A stretch of DNA of 40,052 nt from a virus (lineage: Duplodnaviria; Heunggongvirae; Uroviricota; Caudoviricetes), in IMG/VR virus record IMGVR_UViG_2541047786_000001; one strand, 5' to 3'. Below are positions 5,834 through 18,176 of the stretch, one piece after another (position 1 is the first letter of the stretch; every line of letters begins with the position of its first letter). Under the pieces are notes generated by a model that saw only the letters and a list, made by a program, of their open reading frames with translations, ran no database searches and was not told the origin of the DNA. A program made the position numbers and the translations under genes.

Positions 5834-6586
5834 TTATGCTGCAAGTCTCTTAACCCAAGTCTCTCTTTTGGAGAATGGTAGAACTTGGCTTGATTCATGG
5901 AAGAGTAAGGAGAGTTGTTGCATTTGATCACCAATTGCTTCGCTGTCTATAACAACAAATCTGTTGTTATACTCCTCACTTGAAGCTTTAAGATCAATTA
6001 GTTTCCCAAGCAATGAGTAAGCACTATTCCAGCTTCCTCCGTGTTTCACGCTTGATGTAAAAACGTATTTAGGTATGTCGGTTTTTATTGTTACAGGGAC
6101 GGTAATTTGATGTCCACTCAAGCCATATACGTTTTCACGAAGAGAAAGTGCGTCTCTAAGCTCTGTGTGATATAGATAATCAATAACCATACTTTCAAAC
6201 TTTTCAGCTTGAACTGGCTGATACCAGTCTAACGACAAAGTTGATGCGAGTATACCAGCTCTAATTATGTTCGATGTAATCGCACCGACATCCTTTTCTG
6301 TTGCCCAAGCAATGATTTCTCCTCGAGCATTGAGTTCTGCGCCTTCTTTAAGCAGTAATTGTCGTATCTCATCAAGTCGTTTTTTGGTAAGCGAGATCCC
6401 TCTTGCCTCCATATTCATTAAGGCATCGCATCTGTCACTAACTAAATACCTACCATTGACTTCACGGATAAAGGCACCGACATGCTCTCCATCATCACAG
6501 TAAGTGAATGGACTGATAATTCTCAAGGTCTTGCCTATTGGATGGCATTCGAAACCTAGTTGTGAGATCACTGTTGAGCACATCAT
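5834..6586 (-). CDS. Unknown-function protein B of the cI-N moron operon (rexB-position gene)
   Basis: 250-aa ORF whose start ATG 6586-6584 overlaps the stop of the upstream 185-aa gene in an ATGA arrangement. AT-rich by eye. No motif I can assign and no obvious transmembrane segment. Confidence 0.75.
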   Translation of the reverse strand: MMCSTVISQLGFECHPIGKTLRIISPFTYCDDGEHVGAFIREVNGRYLVSDRCDALMNMEARGISLTKKRLDEIRQLLLKEGAELNARGEIIAWATEKDVGAITSNIIRAGILASTLSLDWYQPVQAEKFESMVIDYLYHTELRDALSLRENVYGLSGHQITVPVTIKTDIPKYVFTSSVKHGGSWNSAYSLLGKLIDLKASSEEYNNRFVVIDSEAIGDQMQQLSLLFHESSQVLPFSKRETWVKRLAA

Positions 6587-7140
6587 ATTCCAAACCCCAT
6601 TTGCCCCGACTCATCTTCAAGCGGTAAAGGTATTCTCCCAGAGTAAGTTATGTTCAGATGTTTACAGAAGTAATTCCAATACCCTACCAGGTCATCTGGG
6701 TTTATGTCATCTTCGATTGGAAACGCTATTCTATCACTATAGTATCCAGCTTCTTCATAGTATACATGGTAGTGAGCACCGTAAATGATATCTTGGTACT
6801 TCGGATGATCGACCTTGTAACTATTCGTGTGTTTGTCAAAGTGATAGGTATCTACCGCGAAAACCCTCTTGTTATGATAGAAAGCAATAATATTTATTTT
6901 AGGGTAAGAAATCGGGTCATCAGGTTCTGAATCCTGATCTGGTTTCCATTTCAGTTCAAACTTTAGCCCTTGTATAGGTATACAATCCTCATCCAAGGGG
7001 ATGATATGGGCTTGTAGCCACATATCAGAGCGACTTGGTTTCTGTTTCCATTTAACGCCAGAAAAGTTAACTATTTTTTTACAATAAAGTACTTTATCAA
7101 CTTCTACTTGGCTTGGCTGATAATCATCTATTTTTGCCAA
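6583..7140 (-). CDS. Unknown-function protein A of the cI-N moron operon (rexA-position gene)
   Basis: 185-aa ORF beginning with TTG at 7140 (MAKIDDYQ...), 40 bp downstream of the cI stop. Acidic, Tyr/His/Pro-rich (HYHVYYEEAGYY). The start codon is uncertain; the next in-frame Met is residue 40. Confidence 0.7.
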   Translation of the reverse strand: MAKIDDYQPSQVEVDKVLYCKKIVNFSGVKWKQKPSRSDMWLQAHIIPLDEDCIPIQGLKFELKWKPDQDSEPDDPISYPKINIIAFYHNKRVFAVDTYHFDKHTNSYKVDHPKYQDIIYGAHYHVYYEEAGYYSDRIAFPIEDDINPDDLVGYWNYFCKHLNITYSGRIPLPLEDESGQMGFGI

Positions 7141-12282: not shown

Positions 12283-12645
12283 GTGAATACCTACAGCATC
12301 ACATTACCCTGGCCTCCGAGCAATAATCGCTATTACCGCCATAATCGCGGGCGCACGCACGTCAGCGCAGAGGGGCAGGCATACCGCGATAACGTCGCCC
12401 GAATCATTAAAAACGCAATGCTGGATATCGGCCTGGCTATGCCTGTGAAAATCCGCATTGAGTGCCACATGCCGGATCGCCGTCGCCGTGACCTGGATAA
12501 TCTGCAAAAAGCCGCTTTTGACGCACTCACTAAAGCAGGTTTCTGGCTGGATGATGCTCAGGTCGTTGATTACCGCGTTGTGAAGATGCCTGTTACCAAA
12601 GGTGGGAGGCTGGAACTGACCATCACCGAAATGGGGAATGAATGA
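12283..12645 (+). CDS. rusA: RusA Holliday-junction resolvase
   Basis: 120 aa with a GTG start at 12283 and AAAGAGGGGG upstream. The sequence is collinear with E. coli DLP12 RusA ([28 protein letters not shown]...). Confidence 0.9.
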
Positions 12646-12782
12646 TGTTTGAGTTTAATATGGCAGAACTTCTTCGCCACCGCTGGGGGCGTCTGCGCTT
12701 ATATCGTTTCCTCGGTTCTGTTTTGACCGATTACCGAATACTGAAGAATTACGCCAAAACCCTGACAGGAACAGGAGTATGA
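12642..12782 (+). CDS. ylcG: YlcG-like small protein
   Basis: 46-aa ORF not in the supplied track ([46 protein letters not shown]); translated by hand. Overlaps the rusA stop and matches DLP12 YlcG from memory. Confidence 0.6.
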
Positions 12783-12867
12783 AGTCAGAGATAACAATCA
12801 ACTAATACTGTTTTGTTGATTTTTGCTTGTAATTGGCGTTCTGGTCTGATTTTTGTGGAGTAAGTTG

Positions 12868-13251
12868 ATGCGTGATATTCAGATGGTTCTTGAGCGTTGG
12901 GGTGCGTGGGCGGCTAATAATCATGAAGATGTGACCTGGTCGTCCATTGCCGCCGGTTTTAAGGGATTAATTCCTTCAAAAGTAAAATCTCGCCCGCAAT
13001 GTTGTGACGATGACGCGATGATCATTTGCGGGTGCATGGCCCGTCTGAAAAAGAACAACAGCGATTTACACGATTTATTAGTAGATTATTATGTATGTGG
13101 TATGACATTCATGTCACTGGCAAGTAAGCATTGCTGCTCGGATGGTTATATCGGGAAAAGGTTACAGAAGGCTGAGGGCATAATTGAAGGGATGTTAATG
13201 GCATTAGATATCCGGTTAGATATGGATATCGTTGCTAATAATTCTAATTGA
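12868..13251 (+). CDS. Q: Late-gene antiterminator Q (phage 82/DLP12 QuuD type)
   Basis: 127 aa from ATG 12868 ([21 protein letters not shown]...). Cys-rich zinc-binding region ([12 protein letters not shown]). Position between the nin genes and the lysis cassette. Confidence 0.85.
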
Positions 13252-13254
13252 TAT

Positions 13255-13335
13255 GCAATTGTTTACTAAAAGTTATTAAAAATGGGGCGTGGAAACGCCC
13301 CCAAAATAAAGGGTAATATATAACAGAAGGTTTAT
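13255..13335 (+). promoter_or_regulatory. Candidate late promoter pR-prime / qut region (position inferred, hexamers not confidently assigned)
   Basis: AT-rich segment immediately downstream of Q and upstream of a strong plus-strand terminator, the arrangement expected for pR-prime and tR-prime. Confidence 0.3.
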
Positions 13336-13396
13336 ATAGTAAGAAGCAAGGTAGTGCTTCTAAAGGAAGTGGCTTGAGGGCTCCACTTATATGTTG

Positions 13397-13432
13397 CGGA
13401 GGCAAAGCCTCCCGCAACATATCTTTTTCGTA
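13397..13432 (+). terminator. Rho-independent terminator (tR-prime candidate)
   Basis: Hairpin GTTGCGGAGG-caaag-CCTCCCGCAAC followed by ATATCTTTTT on the top strand. Confidence 0.5.
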
Positions 13433-13439
13433 AGTCAGA

Positions 13440-14522
13440 TTAGAACTGATAAACCAGACCTACAGCGACGATGTCGTCGGTATCAATACCAGCTGTTTTG
13501 GTAAACTTACTATCGTCAATTAAGTTGATTTTGTAATCAACAAAAGTGGACATGTTTTTATTAAAGTAGTAAGTAGCACCGACATCGACATACTTGACTA
13601 AGTCTCGGTCACCATGAACACCAAGGTCTTTACCTTTTGACTGAAGGTAAGCAACAGATGGACGCAGACCGAAGTCAAACTGATATTGTGCTACTGCTTC
13701 AAAGTTTTGTGCTTTGTTTGCAATATGGTTATTACCAAAAACGGTCATATTCTGAGTTTCAGAATATGTGGTAGCCAGATAGATATTGTTCGCATCATAT
13801 TTCAGGCCTGCAGCCCATACTTCCGCATTTTTGCCGGAGGCATTGAATTTGCTCTTACCATAGGCGACCTGACCGTCAGTGCGATCTGATTTAGCATAGG
13901 TTGCACCCACGCCGAATCCTTCATACTCATAAGTAGTGGAGAAACCGAAACCATCACCATTGGCTTCAGTTACGTCAGTGCGGTCATTTTTACCCTGATA
14001 CTGAGCAGCAAAGTTCAGGCCATCGACCAGACCAAAGAAGTCGTTGTTACGATAAGTTGCAACACCAGTAGTGCGACCAGTCATGAACACATCTGTTTGG
14101 GTCCAGGTATCACCACCGAATTCTGGCAGAACGTCAGTCCACGCACCGATGTCGTATGCTACACCGTAGTTACGGCCGTAATCGATTGAGCCGTAATCAC
14201 CAAATTTCAGGCCTGCAAATGCAAGACGGGTTTTGTCTTTGGAAGAACCTTGAGATTCAGCACGGTTGCCTTTGAATTCATATTCCCACTGACCGAAACC
14301 AGTCAGTTGATCGTTGATTTGGGTTTCACCTTTGAAGCCAAGACGGGCATAAGTAGTATCACCATCATCTGCATCATTAGAGGAGAAGTAGTGCTTGGCA
14401 TTAACTTTCCCGTATAGATCCAGCTTGTTACTGTCTTTATTATAAATTTCAGCTGCCTGAGCAGACATCGCCATCAGTACTGATGCAGCTACAGCAGAAA
14501 TTGCCACTGTTAATTTTTTCAT
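13440..14522 (-). CDS. nmpC: Outer-membrane general porin (OmpC/NmpC/Lc family), phage-encoded moron
   Basis: 360 aa from ATG 14522, with signal peptide [23 protein letters not shown] and the C-terminal aromatic residue (VGLVYQF) typical of beta-barrel porins. The 20 extra N-terminal residues of the track ORF are excluded. Same position and orientation relative to Q and the lysis genes as nmpC in DLP12. Confidence 0.9.
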
Positions 14523-14949
14523 TGTACGCCCTTTTTTTGAACTTTTATTAAAAAATGATGTCACTGCGCGATAAATATTCATCTAATCAATGTGATTATT
14601 TCAAGATGTAAGTTTTAGTTTCTCATTTAATTTGTGAAGTAGATCTCTATTTTTATCTGAACCTTTTCTATCTAATCCTATTCATGGCTCTTGTCTGAAC
14701 AAAAATAAATCTATTAGCTAATTTATATTAATGGCACTTATTTATAAGTGCTCTATAATTCTTTAGCTTAATTTAAACAAACTAAAAATAACATCGGAAA
14801 TTATTAACTGGTTATTTGTTGAAGTTTTCTTATGCATTTGTGGTGGTGTTTTGAACACTCGGTGGCATTCTCACAAATATCATTTAGTAGTTTACGTACG
14901 TAAAAAATTGGTTATGCTGTTAAGAGTGGTTACTTCGTCACACAGCTTA

Positions 14950-14981
14950 AACCCGCCGTCGAGCGGGTTTTTCCATTTTTT
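14950..14981 (+). terminator. Rho-independent terminator-like hairpin upstream of the holin gene
   Basis: AACCCGC-cgtcga-GCGGGTT followed by TTTCCATTTTTT. Possibly an alternative tR-prime or an attenuator of read-through into the lysis genes. Confidence 0.4.
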
Positions 14982-15110
14982 GAGTCTCGATATTAGCTGA
15001 TAACCCAATACCTGAGTTATTCACTGACTCCGAATCTGTTACGTTTCTGCCTTTATTGCGATACGTAGTATCCCCTTAATTTACACCCGCTTTGTCTGCG
15101 AGGTGGGGTT

Positions 15111-15326
15111 ATGAAATCCATGGATAAGTTAACAACGGGTGTCGCCTATGGTACCTCAGCAGGTAGTGCCGGGTACTGGTTTTTACAGTTGCTCGATAAA
15201 GTCACGCCCTCACAGTGGGCGGCAATAGGTGTGCTGGGTAGCCTGGTATTTGGCCTGCTGACGTACCTGACAAACCTTTATTTCAAGATTAAAGAAGATA
15301 AGCGCAAGGCTGCGAGAGGTGAATAA
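15111..15326 (+). CDS. S: Class II holin / pinholin (phage 21 S21 type) with dual-start motif
   Basis: 71 aa ([26 protein letters not shown]...KRKAARGE), very similar to phage 21 S. Met1 and Met4 give the antiholin/holin dual start. Two transmembrane segments. Confidence 0.85.
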
Positions 15327-15823
15327 TGCCTCCATCATTACGAAAAGCCGTTGCTGCTGCTATTGGTGGCGGAGCAATTGCTATAGCATCAGTGTTAATC
15401 ACTGGCCCAAGTGGTAACGATGGTCTGGAAGGTGTCAGCTACATACCATACAAAGATATTGTTGGTGTATGGACTGTATGTCACGGGCATACAGGAAAAG
15501 ACATCATGCTCGGTAAAACGTATACCAAAGCAGAATGCAAAGCCCTCCTGAATAAAGACCTTGCCACGGTCGCCAGACAAATTAACCCGTACATCAAAGT
15601 CGATATACCGGAAACAATGCGCGGCGCTCTTTACTCATTCGTTTACAACGTGGGTGCTGGCAATTTCAGAACATCGACGCTTCTTCGCAAAATAAACCAG
15701 GGCGATATCAAAGGCGCATGTGATCAGCTACGTCGCTGGACATATGCTGGCGGTAAGCAATGGAAAGGTCTCATGACTCGTCGTGAGATTGAGCGTGAAA
15801 TCTGTTTGTGGGGTCAGCAATGA
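15326..15823 (+). CDS. R: SAR endolysin (T4-lysozyme-like muramidase with N-terminal signal-anchor-release domain)
   Basis: 165 aa. The N-terminal Gly/Ala-rich weakly hydrophobic segment [18 protein letters not shown] is a typical SAR domain. Start overlaps the holin stop (TAATG). Confidence 0.9.
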
Positions 15824-16312: not shown

Positions 16313-16606
16313 TTATTGTGAGCAATACACACGCGCTTCCAGCGGAGTATAAATGCCTAAAGTAATAAAACCGAGCAATCCATTTACGAATGTTTGCTGG
16401 GTTTCTGTTTTAACAACATTTTCTGCACCACCACAAATTTTTGCTGCATCGACAGTTTTCTTCTGCCCAATTCCCGAAACGAAGAAATGATGGGTGATGG
16501 TTTCCTTTGGTGTTACTGCTGTAGGTTTGTTTCCAACAGTAAACGTCTGTTGAGCACATCCTGTAATAAGCATTGCCAGAGCGGCAGAAAACAACATTTT
16601 TTTCAT
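16313..16606 (-). CDS. bor: Bor lipoprotein (serum-resistance, lysogenic conversion)
   Basis: 97 aa from ATG 16606 (MKKMLFSAALAMLITGCAQQ...EARVYCSQ), collinear with lambda Bor. Lipobox LITGC. Confidence 0.85.
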   Translation of the reverse strand: MKKMLFSAALAMLITGCAQQTFTVGNKPTAVTPKETITHHFFVSGIGQKKTVDAAKICGGAENVVKTETQQTFVNGLLGFITLGIYTPLEARVYCSQ

Positions 16607-17086: not shown

Positions 17087-17413
17087 ATGAAAAGACGCCT
17101 TTTACTACTTTTTCTGTTATCTGTCCTGGCAGTGGGATGCTCGCAGCAAAAAGCTGATGAGCCCCGGCAATTAGTGACGGTGTATCCACGATATCCGGAA
17201 TATGCTGCAGCAAATTATATCAAGGGGCTGGTTGAGGTTAAGTTCGATATTGGTGCTGATGGGACTGTGACACGGATCGTTTTTCTCCGCTCAGAGCCTC
17301 ATAATTTGTTTCGTGATGAAGTGGTGAAGGCCATGGCGAAATGGCGATTTGAAAAGAATCGCCCCTGTCAGGGAGTGAAGAGACAATTTATCTTTACGCC
17401 GTCACGTCCTTGA
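17087..17413 (+). CDS. Putative lipoprotein with TonB-C-terminal-like fold
   Basis: 108 aa from ATG 17087. Signal peptide plus lipobox MKRRLLLLFLLSVLAVGC. The YPRYPEYAAANYIKGLVEVKFDIGADGTV segment resembles the TonB C-terminal domain signature. Confidence 0.5.
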   Translation: MKRRLLLLFLLSVLAVGCSQQKADEPRQLVTVYPRYPEYAAANYIKGLVEVKFDIGADGTVTRIVFLRSEPHNLFRDEVVKAMAKWRFEKNRPCQGVKRQFIFTPSRP

Positions 17414-17535: not shown

Positions 17536-17889
17536 TCATTTCTTCTTTTTCTCTGGTGGAACCCGATGAATAAGAGTTGCACTGGTTTCCGATGAGATGG
17601 CGATATACTCGGGCAAAGTATGCTGGCAGTTTTCCAACTGGTCAAAAATACCTGCTCTCGTCTGTTGCAATGCCTGCAGCATGCGGCGGCAATGCGCCTT
17701 GCTTTTACTAACCATCTTTCCTTCCTCTATCAGTCGCTGCGTGAACTCATCATGGAATACCAGGTAAATGCGGATGTTATCGGTTTTGGCTACGCAGCAT
17801 AGTACAAAACGGACAGGTGCATCCCGGGACGGGGGAGGCGTCACATGTCCCTGTGATGGTTGTTCCGGGTAATGTACTGTGTGGGGCAT
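17536..17889 (-). CDS. Hypothetical protein (true start uncertain; overlaps alternative ORF 17777-18028)
   Basis: 117-aa ORF ending in KKKK. A different-frame ORF on the same strand (17777-18028) starts MKIRNILAISLATSSFSCLA, which is signal-peptide-like. I cannot decide which is real from sequence alone. Confidence 0.3.
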   Translation of the reverse strand: MPHTVHYPEQPSQGHVTPPPSRDAPVRFVLCCVAKTDNIRIYLVFHDEFTQRLIEEGKMVSKSKAHCRRMLQALQQTRAGIFDQLENCQHTLPEYIAISSETSATLIHRVPPEKKKK

Positions 17890-18176
17890 AAAAATGTCCG
17901 ATAATTTTACTTTCTACCGCAGTTAGTTGATTCGTTGGTCCTGGTAGCACATTGGGCGAGGATTTAAATGCCAGGCAACTGAAGGATGATGTCGCAAGGG
18001 AGATAGCGAGAATATTTCTGATTTTCATTTGATGATGCCTCTGTGTGAAATGACGGTAAACGACGCACTTGTGCCGGCACATAATAGCAAGCACCATAAT
18101 AGATCAGATTCGATTCTTGCTGTAAGTGATAATTATTCTCGTTTTCGGGTCCTTTCCGTCGATCCAACAGGTTACG

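Follow-up and report, generated by a model that had tools for sequence, protein, structure and literature searches.

The closest described counterparts of the locus analyzed here are the lc gene of phage PA-2 (GenBank J02580) and nmpC, which lies in the qsr' region of DLP12, a cryptic prophage of E. coli K-12. In both, the same gene occupies the same place, in the same orientation, between Q and an S21-type holin gene as in our window (the whole 40,052-nucleotide stretch of viral DNA that was analyzed), and it is accompanied by the same upstream region, with an annotated CRP site, and by the same downstream block. In DLP12 and 434B this cassette is broken by IS5, whereas the window gene is intact and carries no IS5. 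The PR'-tR' region of 933W/Sakai-type phages, the source of the small RNA StxS, is also related to the window: its promoter, spacer palindrome, start block and first hairpin all have homologous counterparts here. In Sakai, dRNA-seq and Term-seq placed the PR' start 258 nt before the 3' end of tR' (PMC7547250). The Q protein of phage 21 (PDB 6P18, 6JNX) belongs to the same family as the window Q, PF06530, which has been assigned to the Q21-family antiterminators (PMC9388147), and the Q21 binding element occupies the -35/-10 spacer of its promoter (PMC6606751).

The window represents a lambda-type phage, with N, cI, cro, O, P, the nin genes, Q, the porin gene, S, R, Rz and bor, and it is 100% identical to coliphages ev017 and PhiR57_1. 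Q is encoded on the plus strand at 12868-13251. Its product matches PF06530 (E=6.7e-54), is 81% identical over 120 amino acids to Q of the 933W-type Stx phage SC370, and gives a distant match to the Q21 structures 6P18 and 6JNX (E=4e-8); judged by the profile match and the homology to Q21, it is a member of the Q21 family. The last ~7 codons set this Q apart from related Q genes and accompany the porin cassette, and alignments to porin-less relatives end at about residue 120. The first late gene encodes an S21-type holin (15111-15326, plus strand; Pfam Phage_holin_2_1, E=2e-35), and the endolysin and spanin genes come next. Farther along, bor (16313-16606, minus strand) is a true reverse-oriented gene inside the Q-controlled late operon.

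Between Q and the holin gene lies an intact OmpC-type porin gene on the minus strand (13440-14522), which encodes a precursor of 360 amino acids; the open reading frame is listed as 13440-14582, but the real start is the ATG at 14522. Residues 29-360 align with positions 1-337 of the 337-position Pfam profile Porin_1 (PF00267; E=1.9e-151), a full-length match, and solved OmpC structures likewise match along the full length (E about 6e-137). As read from the translation, the protein has a 23-residue signal peptide of the Sec type with an AXA cleavage site and ends in GLVYQF, with the terminal Phe; alignment with the mature solved porins begins at residue 24. It is a general bacterial porin of the OmpC/OmpF/PhoE family, and the full-length match to OmpC crystal structures predicts a 16-stranded, trimeric beta-barrel. 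With 91% amino-acid identity to PA-2 Lc, the differences being grouped in a few short segments, and with homology to DLP12 nmpC, the gene is the long-known Lc/NmpC gene of lambda-like E. coli prophages.

The region upstream of the porin gene (14523-14887, minus strand) has the features of an AT-rich 5' UTR and regulatory region, as judged by its base composition (GC 0.25-0.35 across about 14500-14900), a CRP-like site and the K-12 homologue. The CRP-like site, TGTGA-N6-TCTCT, lies at 14633-14648, where the CRP site annotated in the PA-2 record J02580 also maps. A minus-strand promoter scan of 14523-14721 gave no hexamer pairs above threshold. In K-12, nmpC has a sigma70 promoter no more than 199 bp from its ATG, which is active by 5' RACE and promoter deletion (PMC11677980), and by analogy with this homologue the window porin probably has a promoter of its own. 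Promoter matches in the AT-rich region numbered 3, versus 7.2 expected by chance. A plus-strand site at 14731-14759 (ATGGCA-17-TATAAT) was rejected as pR' because it is absent from porin-less relatives of the same Q subtype and because DNA this rich in AT should yield such matches by chance.

On the other side of the porin gene, a terminator scan and folding identified a minus-strand intrinsic terminator at 13275-13301: a hairpin (13284-13301) with a U-run ending near 13275, reading GGGGCGTTTCCACGCCCC then ATTTTTAA, that folds at -13.8 kcal/mol (z=-3.2). In other porin-bearing loci its stem is kept and its loop varies, and it is likely the 3' end of the porin mRNA. This terminator had been overlooked previously. 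In other respects the original prediction described the gene well: a complete minus-strand porin of the OmpC/NmpC family, with signal peptide and C-terminal Phe, is present between Q and the holin gene, as is the AT-rich region upstream of its start, and the proposed effect on the outer membrane or receptor availability is a likely role that agrees with reports on Lc/NmpC. A literature search on the function of PA-2 Lc itself gave nothing directly relevant. The notion that the gene might be silent under all conditions is contradicted by the active K-12 nmpC promoter mapped by 5' RACE (PMC11677980).

The porin cassette has sharp boundaries. On the left, the porin-less relatives that were aligned cease to resemble the window beyond about Q codon 120; on the right, similarity to the porin-less SC370, SfII and loci L069 and L100, which were aligned or inspected, resumes at about 14888-14895. 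In phages of the same Q subtype, this site holds 17, about 630 or about 830 bp, or a different cargo. The cassette is found in 2466 of 5426 complete E. coli genomes, and its synteny is shared by PA-2, 434B/DLP12 and about 35 sequenced coliphages. Its presence or absence among relatives and its sharp edges mark the porin as a moron, complete and probably self-contained, opposite in strand to the late genes. Scanned against Rfam at E<=1, 12600-15400 gave two chance hits below threshold, sau-19 and Trp leader, and nothing else; neither intergenic region holds a known RNA family.

Alignment with the annotated pR' of SC370 and VT2-Sakai places a proposed Q-responsive late promoter, pR', on the plus strand at 14891-14918, just past the right edge of the cassette. 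It comprises a -35 element (TTTACG, 14891-14896), a 16-bp spacer and a -10 element (TATGCT, 14913-14918); the hexamers match the consensus at 8 of 12 positions, a weak match that a simple promoter scan did not list. The spacer palindrome ACGTACGT (14894-14901), together with an A-tract, is a candidate Q-binding element. Across 14888-14972, the window is 78% identical in alignment to the annotated pR', putative qut and first hairpin of the 933W-type Stx phages. A block covering the start site and the initial transcribed sequence, TAAGAGTGGTTACTTCGTCAC (14921-14941, plus strand), has one exact copy in the window and is common to Sakai, SfII, cdtI, PA-2 and DLP12/434B; palindrome and block each occur only once in the window, within 14888-14941.

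The start site of Sakai (1,266,203 in NC_002695.1) was placed through its 258-nt distance to the 3' end of tR', the numbering of version.2 being shifted. In the Sakai sequence this distance puts the start 6-8 nt after the -10 element, which corresponds to 14924-14926 in the window. Transcription would thus begin at 14924-14926, a position carried over through alignment to a phage with an 81% identical Q, and 187 nt upstream of the holin gene. The block at 14921-14941 is a candidate pause and Q-loading region, in which a candidate -10-like pause element (TACTTC, 14931-14936) aligns with TACATT of Sakai/933W; its sixth position is C, T or A among the loci. Downstream, terminator scanning and folding revealed an intrinsic terminator on the plus strand (14949-14981), in which a hairpin at 14949-14970 is followed by TTTTTCCATTTTTT, ending at 14981. 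It separates the promoter from the first late gene, at about +25 to +57 from the predicted start, and is a candidate for tR', on which Q antitermination would act. The dominant PR' RNA of Sakai runs to +258 instead of ending at the homologous first hairpin (PMC7547250); efficient termination at 14949-14981 is therefore only putative. Two small open reading frames in this region, 14851-15000 (plus strand) and 14892-15008 (minus strand), overlap the promoter/terminator block and were dismissed as spurious.

The 120 IMG/VR loci that we compared were picked for an exact copy of the initial transcribed block, and conservation inside it is therefore built into the sample. A full-length Q21-family Q gene was found upstream on the same strand in 96 of them, and in these the distance from the Q stop codon to the block ranged from 5 to 2461 bp, which indicates that the block travels with Q while the content between them varies. 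The -10 pattern and the spacer palindrome lie upstream of the start, outside the search pattern. We found that the -10 pattern TAnnnT is retained across nearly all of 66 sequence variants, and that the type of palindrome partitions cleanly by Q subtype (6 types, 10 Q clusters, 96 loci). Nearly all 66 variants also have a hairpin and T-run at the tR' position, differing in sequence. Where more than 600 bp of cargo separates Q from the block, about 20 distinct cassettes have it on the minus strand versus 2 on the plus strand, a bias that would follow if such cargo were located outside the late operon. We consider it likely that the porin cassette lies between Q and pR' (14891-14918), divergent from pR', and that Q-modified late transcription never enters the porin gene.

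Late RNA might also arise within the cassette itself. A sigmaE-type promoter-like site, GAACTT-N16-TCACT, can be read on the plus strand at 14539-14565 (predicted start ~14571), where it points away from the porin; it is the counterpart of DLP12 essDp, and Q might act there to drive the lysis and late genes, and not on a sigma70 pR'. This sequence fits the sigmaE consensus. For DLP12, transcription is reportedly RpoE-dependent, with the effect of Q lost when the -35 element is altered (Rueggeberg et al. 2015). The reporter primers published for DLP12, for a construct described as spanning -121 to +650, put +1 at about position 14571 of the window (PMC7918800). However, the site lies within the porin cassette and is absent from phages of the same Q subtype that carry other cargo, which must therefore achieve Q-dependent late expression without it. 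Moreover, loading of known Q proteins takes place at a promoter-proximal pause that depends on sigma70 (PMC6606751, PMC9388147), and RNA from 14571 would still run into the terminator at 14949-14981. Q action at essDp is thus unlikely; the site may be a second, stress-responsive promoter alongside pR'. The published DLP12 work reportedly attributes the Q-dependent expression to a promoter of the sigmaE type, about 350 bp before our proposed pR', which speaks against the latter. The lysis-cassette promoter published for DLP12 is, for its part, also on the far side of nmpC.

The original prediction had Q-modified late RNA running antisense through the porin for about 1.1 kb. In such an arrangement, pR' and qut would lie directly after Q (13252-13390), the hairpin at 13389-13430 would be tR', and Q-modified polymerase would cross the porin gene on its way to the lysis genes; the porin would be a reverse gene within the late operon, and convergent transcription would silence it in lytic growth. 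In lambda, P22 and 933W, pR' does adjoin or overlap the end of Q, and the window has a strong plus-strand terminator 140-180 bp after Q, about the distance between pR' and tR' in lambda. Reverse genes within Q-controlled operons also exist, as with phi80 tai (PMC11364771) and bor in this window. Nevertheless, the interval 13252-13392 contains neither a sigma70-like promoter nor a copy of the pR' module: the Q-family block and the Q-subtype palindrome are unique to 14888-14941. Furthermore, the 190 bp after Q are found only with the porin cassette, and same-subtype phages with other cargo lack them and retain the 14888-14981 module. We regard a promoter directly after Q as very improbable. A late promoter near 14800-15000, which had been set beforehand as the finding that would speak against antisense transcription, is where the comparative evidence puts pR'.

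Both hairpins noted earlier (13397-13432 and 14950-14981) are present, the first folding as 13389-13422 with a tail to 13428 and the second as 14949-14970 plus a T-run to 14981. The first, identified by folding as a plus-strand intrinsic terminator directly after Q (13389-13430), has a 15-bp stem and a CUUUUU tail and is highly stable (dG -21.9 kcal/mol, z=-5.7); locus L010 has a variant with compensatory stem changes. No promoters or Q-module copies were found upstream of it, in 13252-13388. By a simple test, other cargo classes gave a mixed result, with a terminator directly after Q present in some and undetected in others. Most likely, 13389-13430 stops unmodified rightward early transcription before the porin and is not tR'.

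Finally, there is very little chance that 14888-14981 is a conserved recombination joint or a lysis-gene leader RNA, with late RNA coming from elsewhere (for example, by N read-through from pR): the weak, unlisted promoter match, the part of the block's conservation that is built into the search, and the block's position as right-hand boundary of many different cassettes would fit this, but the homologous Sakai site is a primary start by dRNA-seq (PMC7547250), the TAnnnT -10 and the subtype-specific palindrome lie upstream of the start and outside the search pattern, and the intact Q gene implies a cognate site.

With pR' on the far side of the porin, as we favor, a reverse-oriented lysogenic-conversion cassette (~13228-14887) would separate Q from its target promoter. 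The cassette comprises the porin gene together with an AT-rich, CRP-type regulatory region and a minus-strand terminator of its own; pR' and the porin promoter would stand back to back and diverge. Late RNA would start near 14924 and stop at 14949-14981 unless Q had modified the polymerase, which would then read on into the holin gene and the rest of the late operon. In the lysogen, the porin would be made from its own promoter, independent of phage development, and the terminator at 13389-13430 would stop unmodified rightward transcription leaving Q. During lytic growth, the only early or late transcripts that could cross the porin antisense would be N-modified transcripts from pR, which would ignore terminators. 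For annotation, the porin would be placed outside the late operon, and its expression in the lysogen would therefore need no special insulation from Q-dependent transcription; bor and similar genes are the better place to look for an antisense conflict. Among cases of lysogenic conversion by coliphages, this cassette is one of the oldest, and nearly half of complete E. coli genomes carry it.

We tentatively propose, as a possibility somewhat short of even, that the Q/pR' junction of phages with a Q21-family Q is a recombination-delimited hotspot for reverse-strand, lysogen-expressed cargo, and that each Q subtype reads its own palindromic spacer element, unlike the direct repeats of Q21. The boundaries of the hotspot may lie near Q codon 120 on the left and at the pR' -35 element on the right. 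Cargo at this junction includes the porin, Kiwa, a KAP-NTPase (PDC-S20), the candidates PDC-M53 and PDC-M68, NA37 pairs, lipoproteins and many unannotated two-gene cassettes; if the proposal is true, the window porin is one occupant among these. A limited literature search found no description of this hotspot and palindrome reading. As by-products, the comparison yields a rule by which pR' can be found from the sequence of Q21-family prophages, among them Stx phages, in which pR' controls toxin output, and flags the junction as a site that gathers unannotated defence candidates.

Relative to the 933W-type phages, the locus combines a homologous promoter module with a different layout. The spacer palindrome is ACGATCGT in 933W/Sakai-type phages and ACGTACGT here. 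PR' of the 933W type overlaps the 3' end of Q, whereas pR' in the window lies 1.67 kb from Q with the porin cassette between them. Homology ends at 14972, and the window has no StxS-like sequence or +258 terminator. The 933W-type cargo, tRNAs and stx, is downstream of PR' on the late strand; the window porin, in contrast, is upstream and on the opposite strand. As for phage 21, both its Q and that of the window are associated with a binding or subtype-specific element in the -35/-10 spacer, but the Q21 element consists of two direct TGAGCA repeats (PMC6606751), whereas the putative element of the window and of five sister subtypes is a palindrome of 8-11 bp, mostly followed by an A-tract. Lastly, taiEcA of phi80, described as a 'noncontiguous operon' (PMC11364771), and bor of lambda are, like the porin, lysogen-expressed accessory genes sited close to the lysis module on the strand opposite the late genes. 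Late transcripts pass through those two genes, which are downstream of pR', whereas the porin, upstream of the proposed pR', would remain uncrossed.

The original prediction of a complete minus-strand porin gene was borne out. The ORF spans 13440-14582 on the minus strand, with its true start at ATG 14522, and encodes 360 aa with a signal peptide and the C-terminus GLVYQF; Q (12868-13251, PF06530) lies on one flank and an S21-type holin gene (15111-15326) on the other. The protein gives a full-length match to Pfam Porin_1 (E=1.9e-151), and solved OmpC structures align to it from residue 24 (E about 6e-137). We found that the PA-2 Lc porin is 91% identical, the mismatches being bunched in a few short segments; the genes are laid out alike in the PA-2 record (J02580), whose annotated CRP site corresponds to window 14633-14648. 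In phage 434B, which took up the DLP12 qsr' region, this cassette recurs with IS5 inside the porin. Of 5426 complete E. coli genomes, 2466 contain at least 80% of window 13252-15110, among them Nissle 1917 (100%) and K-12, whose copy carries IS5. The K-12 nmpC promoter, at most 199 bp from the ATG, is active by 5' RACE and is described as being activated by CRP and repressed by OmpR, IHF and MprA (PMC11677980). Because of the PA-2 and 434B cassettes, this frequency among genomes and the active nmpC promoter, we conclude that the porin cassette is an old, common, expressed moron; the Lc/NmpC porin moron is already known. By inspection only, a tentative porin promoter reads TTGAAA-18-GAATAT, with a start near 14567-14569.

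The phage is a temperate coliphage of the lambda type. Over 12850-15330 it matches Escherichia phages ev017 and PhiR57_1 at 100% identity, and E. coli ATCC 25922 carries a prophage 99.8% identical to its first 25 kb. PhiR57_1 coordinates coincide with those of the window, and its annotation gives the gene order N, cI, cro, cII, O, P, ren, nin genes, rusA, Q, porin, S, R, Rz, bor, Nu1, A. Between N and cI, where lambda has rexAB, sits a pair of minus-strand genes (5834-6583 and 6583-7140) with matches to Pfam DUF1828 and DUF6978 and to the PADLOC candidate defence system PDC-M24 (M24B, E=7e-10; M24A, E=5e-4).

Terminator scanning and folding recovered both predicted plus-strand hairpins. The first, at 13389-13422, is followed by CUUUUU (dG -21.9 kcal/mol, z=-5.7), and the second, at 14949-14970, by TTTTTCCATTTTTT. 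The AT-rich region said to lie upstream of the porin start is likewise present (GC 0.25-0.35 over about 14500-14900). A minus-strand terminator had been overlooked (hairpin 13284-13301, U-run ending near 13275); the porin mRNA likely ends there. For the plus-strand terminator at 13389-13430, the best reading is that it halts unmodified rightward transcription exiting Q. The phage has an N gene; if this acts as in lambda, N-modified transcripts from pR would pass the terminator and cross the porin antisense in lytic growth.

The original prediction further assumed that the Q-responsive late promoter, pR', adjoins Q, such that late transcripts would run antisense through the porin. Five lines of comparative evidence instead place pR' past the porin, at 14891-14918, within the interval (about 14800-15000) from which no such read-through was expected, and antisense Q-dependent transcription of the porin is not supported. 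Late transcription would start about 400 bp past the porin start codon and head away from the gene; pR' and the porin promoter would thus be divergent neighbours, and the porin would require no insulation from Q-dependent transcription.

The first line is homology to a mapped Stx-phage promoter. The window Q and that of 933W-type Stx phages share 81% identity across 120 residues, and a search for distant DNA matches to the porin-holin spacer hit about 300 Stx-phage records, at the extreme end of Q. Window 14888-14972 and SC370 492-575 align at 78%; the SC370 interval covers the annotated pR', the putative VT2-Sakai qut (Q utilisation site) and the first hairpin. By dRNA-seq and Term-seq, the primary Sakai PR' start lies 258 nt before the 3' end of its terminator, tR' (PMC7547250), which on the Sakai sequence is 6-8 nt past the -10 TATCAT. 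The window equivalent is 14924-14926, downstream of -10 TATGCT (14913-14918), and the proposed promoter is a weak match to consensus, with no clear-cut pause element. The dominant Sakai PR' RNA ends at +258, not at the homologous first hairpin, so termination at 14949-14981 may not be efficient. Should pR' be constitutive, as it is in Sakai, a terminated RNA of ~55 nt would be expected in the lysogen from 14924-14981; homology ends at 14972, so this RNA has none to the Stx-phage small RNA StxS, and it has no Rfam match.

Within the window, the conserved block TAAGAGTGGTTAC and the spacer element ACGTACGTAAAA each occur once, at 14921 and 14894, respectively, and a promoter scan returned no promoter-like sites within 13252-13392. 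We scanned IMG/VR for exact matches to the 21-nt transcribed block and obtained 120 loci, 96 of which yielded a full-length Q21-family Q upstream on the same strand, with 5 to 2461 bp from Q stop to block. For the window's Q subtype, the block follows at 17 bp in the 933W type, at about 630 or about 830 bp in others, and at about 1670-1690 bp where the porin intervenes, each time with the same promoter sequence; the module thus travels with Q. Across 66 distinct variants the -10 is almost invariably TAnnnT with differing inner bases, and nearly all have a GC-rich hairpin and T-run of variable sequence downstream of the block; both features fall outside the search pattern.

A second published promoter also lies here. 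The RpoE-dependent essDp has been described in DLP12 (Rueggeberg et al. 2015, as reported in PMC7918800), and the primers of the PMC7918800 reporter ("-121 to +650") map to window 14450 and about 15233, giving a +1 near 14571. Just upstream is a plus-strand sigmaE-like site, GAACTT-N16-TCACT (14539-14565). Because this site is inside the porin cassette, essDp cannot drive Q-dependent expression in phages that share the Q subtype but carry other cargo; it is directed away from the porin and is therefore of no help to the antisense model. It may act alongside pR' as a stress-responsive promoter. The site sits no more than ~60 bp upstream of the porin ATG, in the expected 5' UTR and core promoter region, and the two promoters may overlap back to back.

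In gaps of more than 600 bp between Q and pR', about 20 distinct cassettes have their ORFs on the minus strand and two have them on the plus strand. Among this cargo are KwaB from the Kiwa defence system (E=2e-126) alongside a putative membrane partner ORF, a KAP-NTPase (PDC-S20 match, E=2e-176), PDC-M53A and PDC-M68A candidates, NA37 pairs, an alpha/beta hydrolase, lipoprotein-like ORFs and several unannotated pairs. The annotated genomes of SfII and phage cdtI share the layout. Across the block-bearing loci, the gap (13228-14887 in the window) varies widely in content and looks like a defence and moron hotspot, which might be new.

Three minus-strand genes do lie inside the late operon, between Rz and Nu1: bor (16313-16606) and two unannotated ORFs (17536-17889 and 17964-18167) with no Pfam or PADLOC match. 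Q-modified late transcription would run antisense through these three, unlike the porin. This arrangement resembles the "noncontiguous operon" of phi80 tai (PMC11364771). On the late strand between bor and Nu1, a small ORF (17087-17413, plus strand) has a lipoprotein-like N-terminus and a TonB C-terminal domain (PF03544, E=7e-13); PhiR57_1 labels it a partial tonB-like protein.

The fifth line of evidence for the pR' position is covariation with Q. The -35/-10 spacer contains a palindrome of 8-11 bp, with an A-tract behind it in most loci (window 14894-14907). Six palindrome types partition cleanly with Q subtype across ten Q clusters: ACG(T/A)(A/T)CGT with the window/DLP12/933W subtype, GCGGTCCGC with cdtI, GCG(T/C)ACGC with SfII, and TGTTATAACA, TGGAATTCCA and TTCGTTACGAA with three more. 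Q identity is 63-82% within subtypes versus at most 62% between them. These subtype-specific palindromes might be new. Q21, the solved member of the window Q's family (PF06530), has its binding element in the same spacer (PMC6606751). Given this and the partition, we consider the palindrome a candidate Q-binding element. The Q21 element, however, is a direct repeat, and if the palindrome is indeed bound by Q, the binding geometry would differ from that of Q21.
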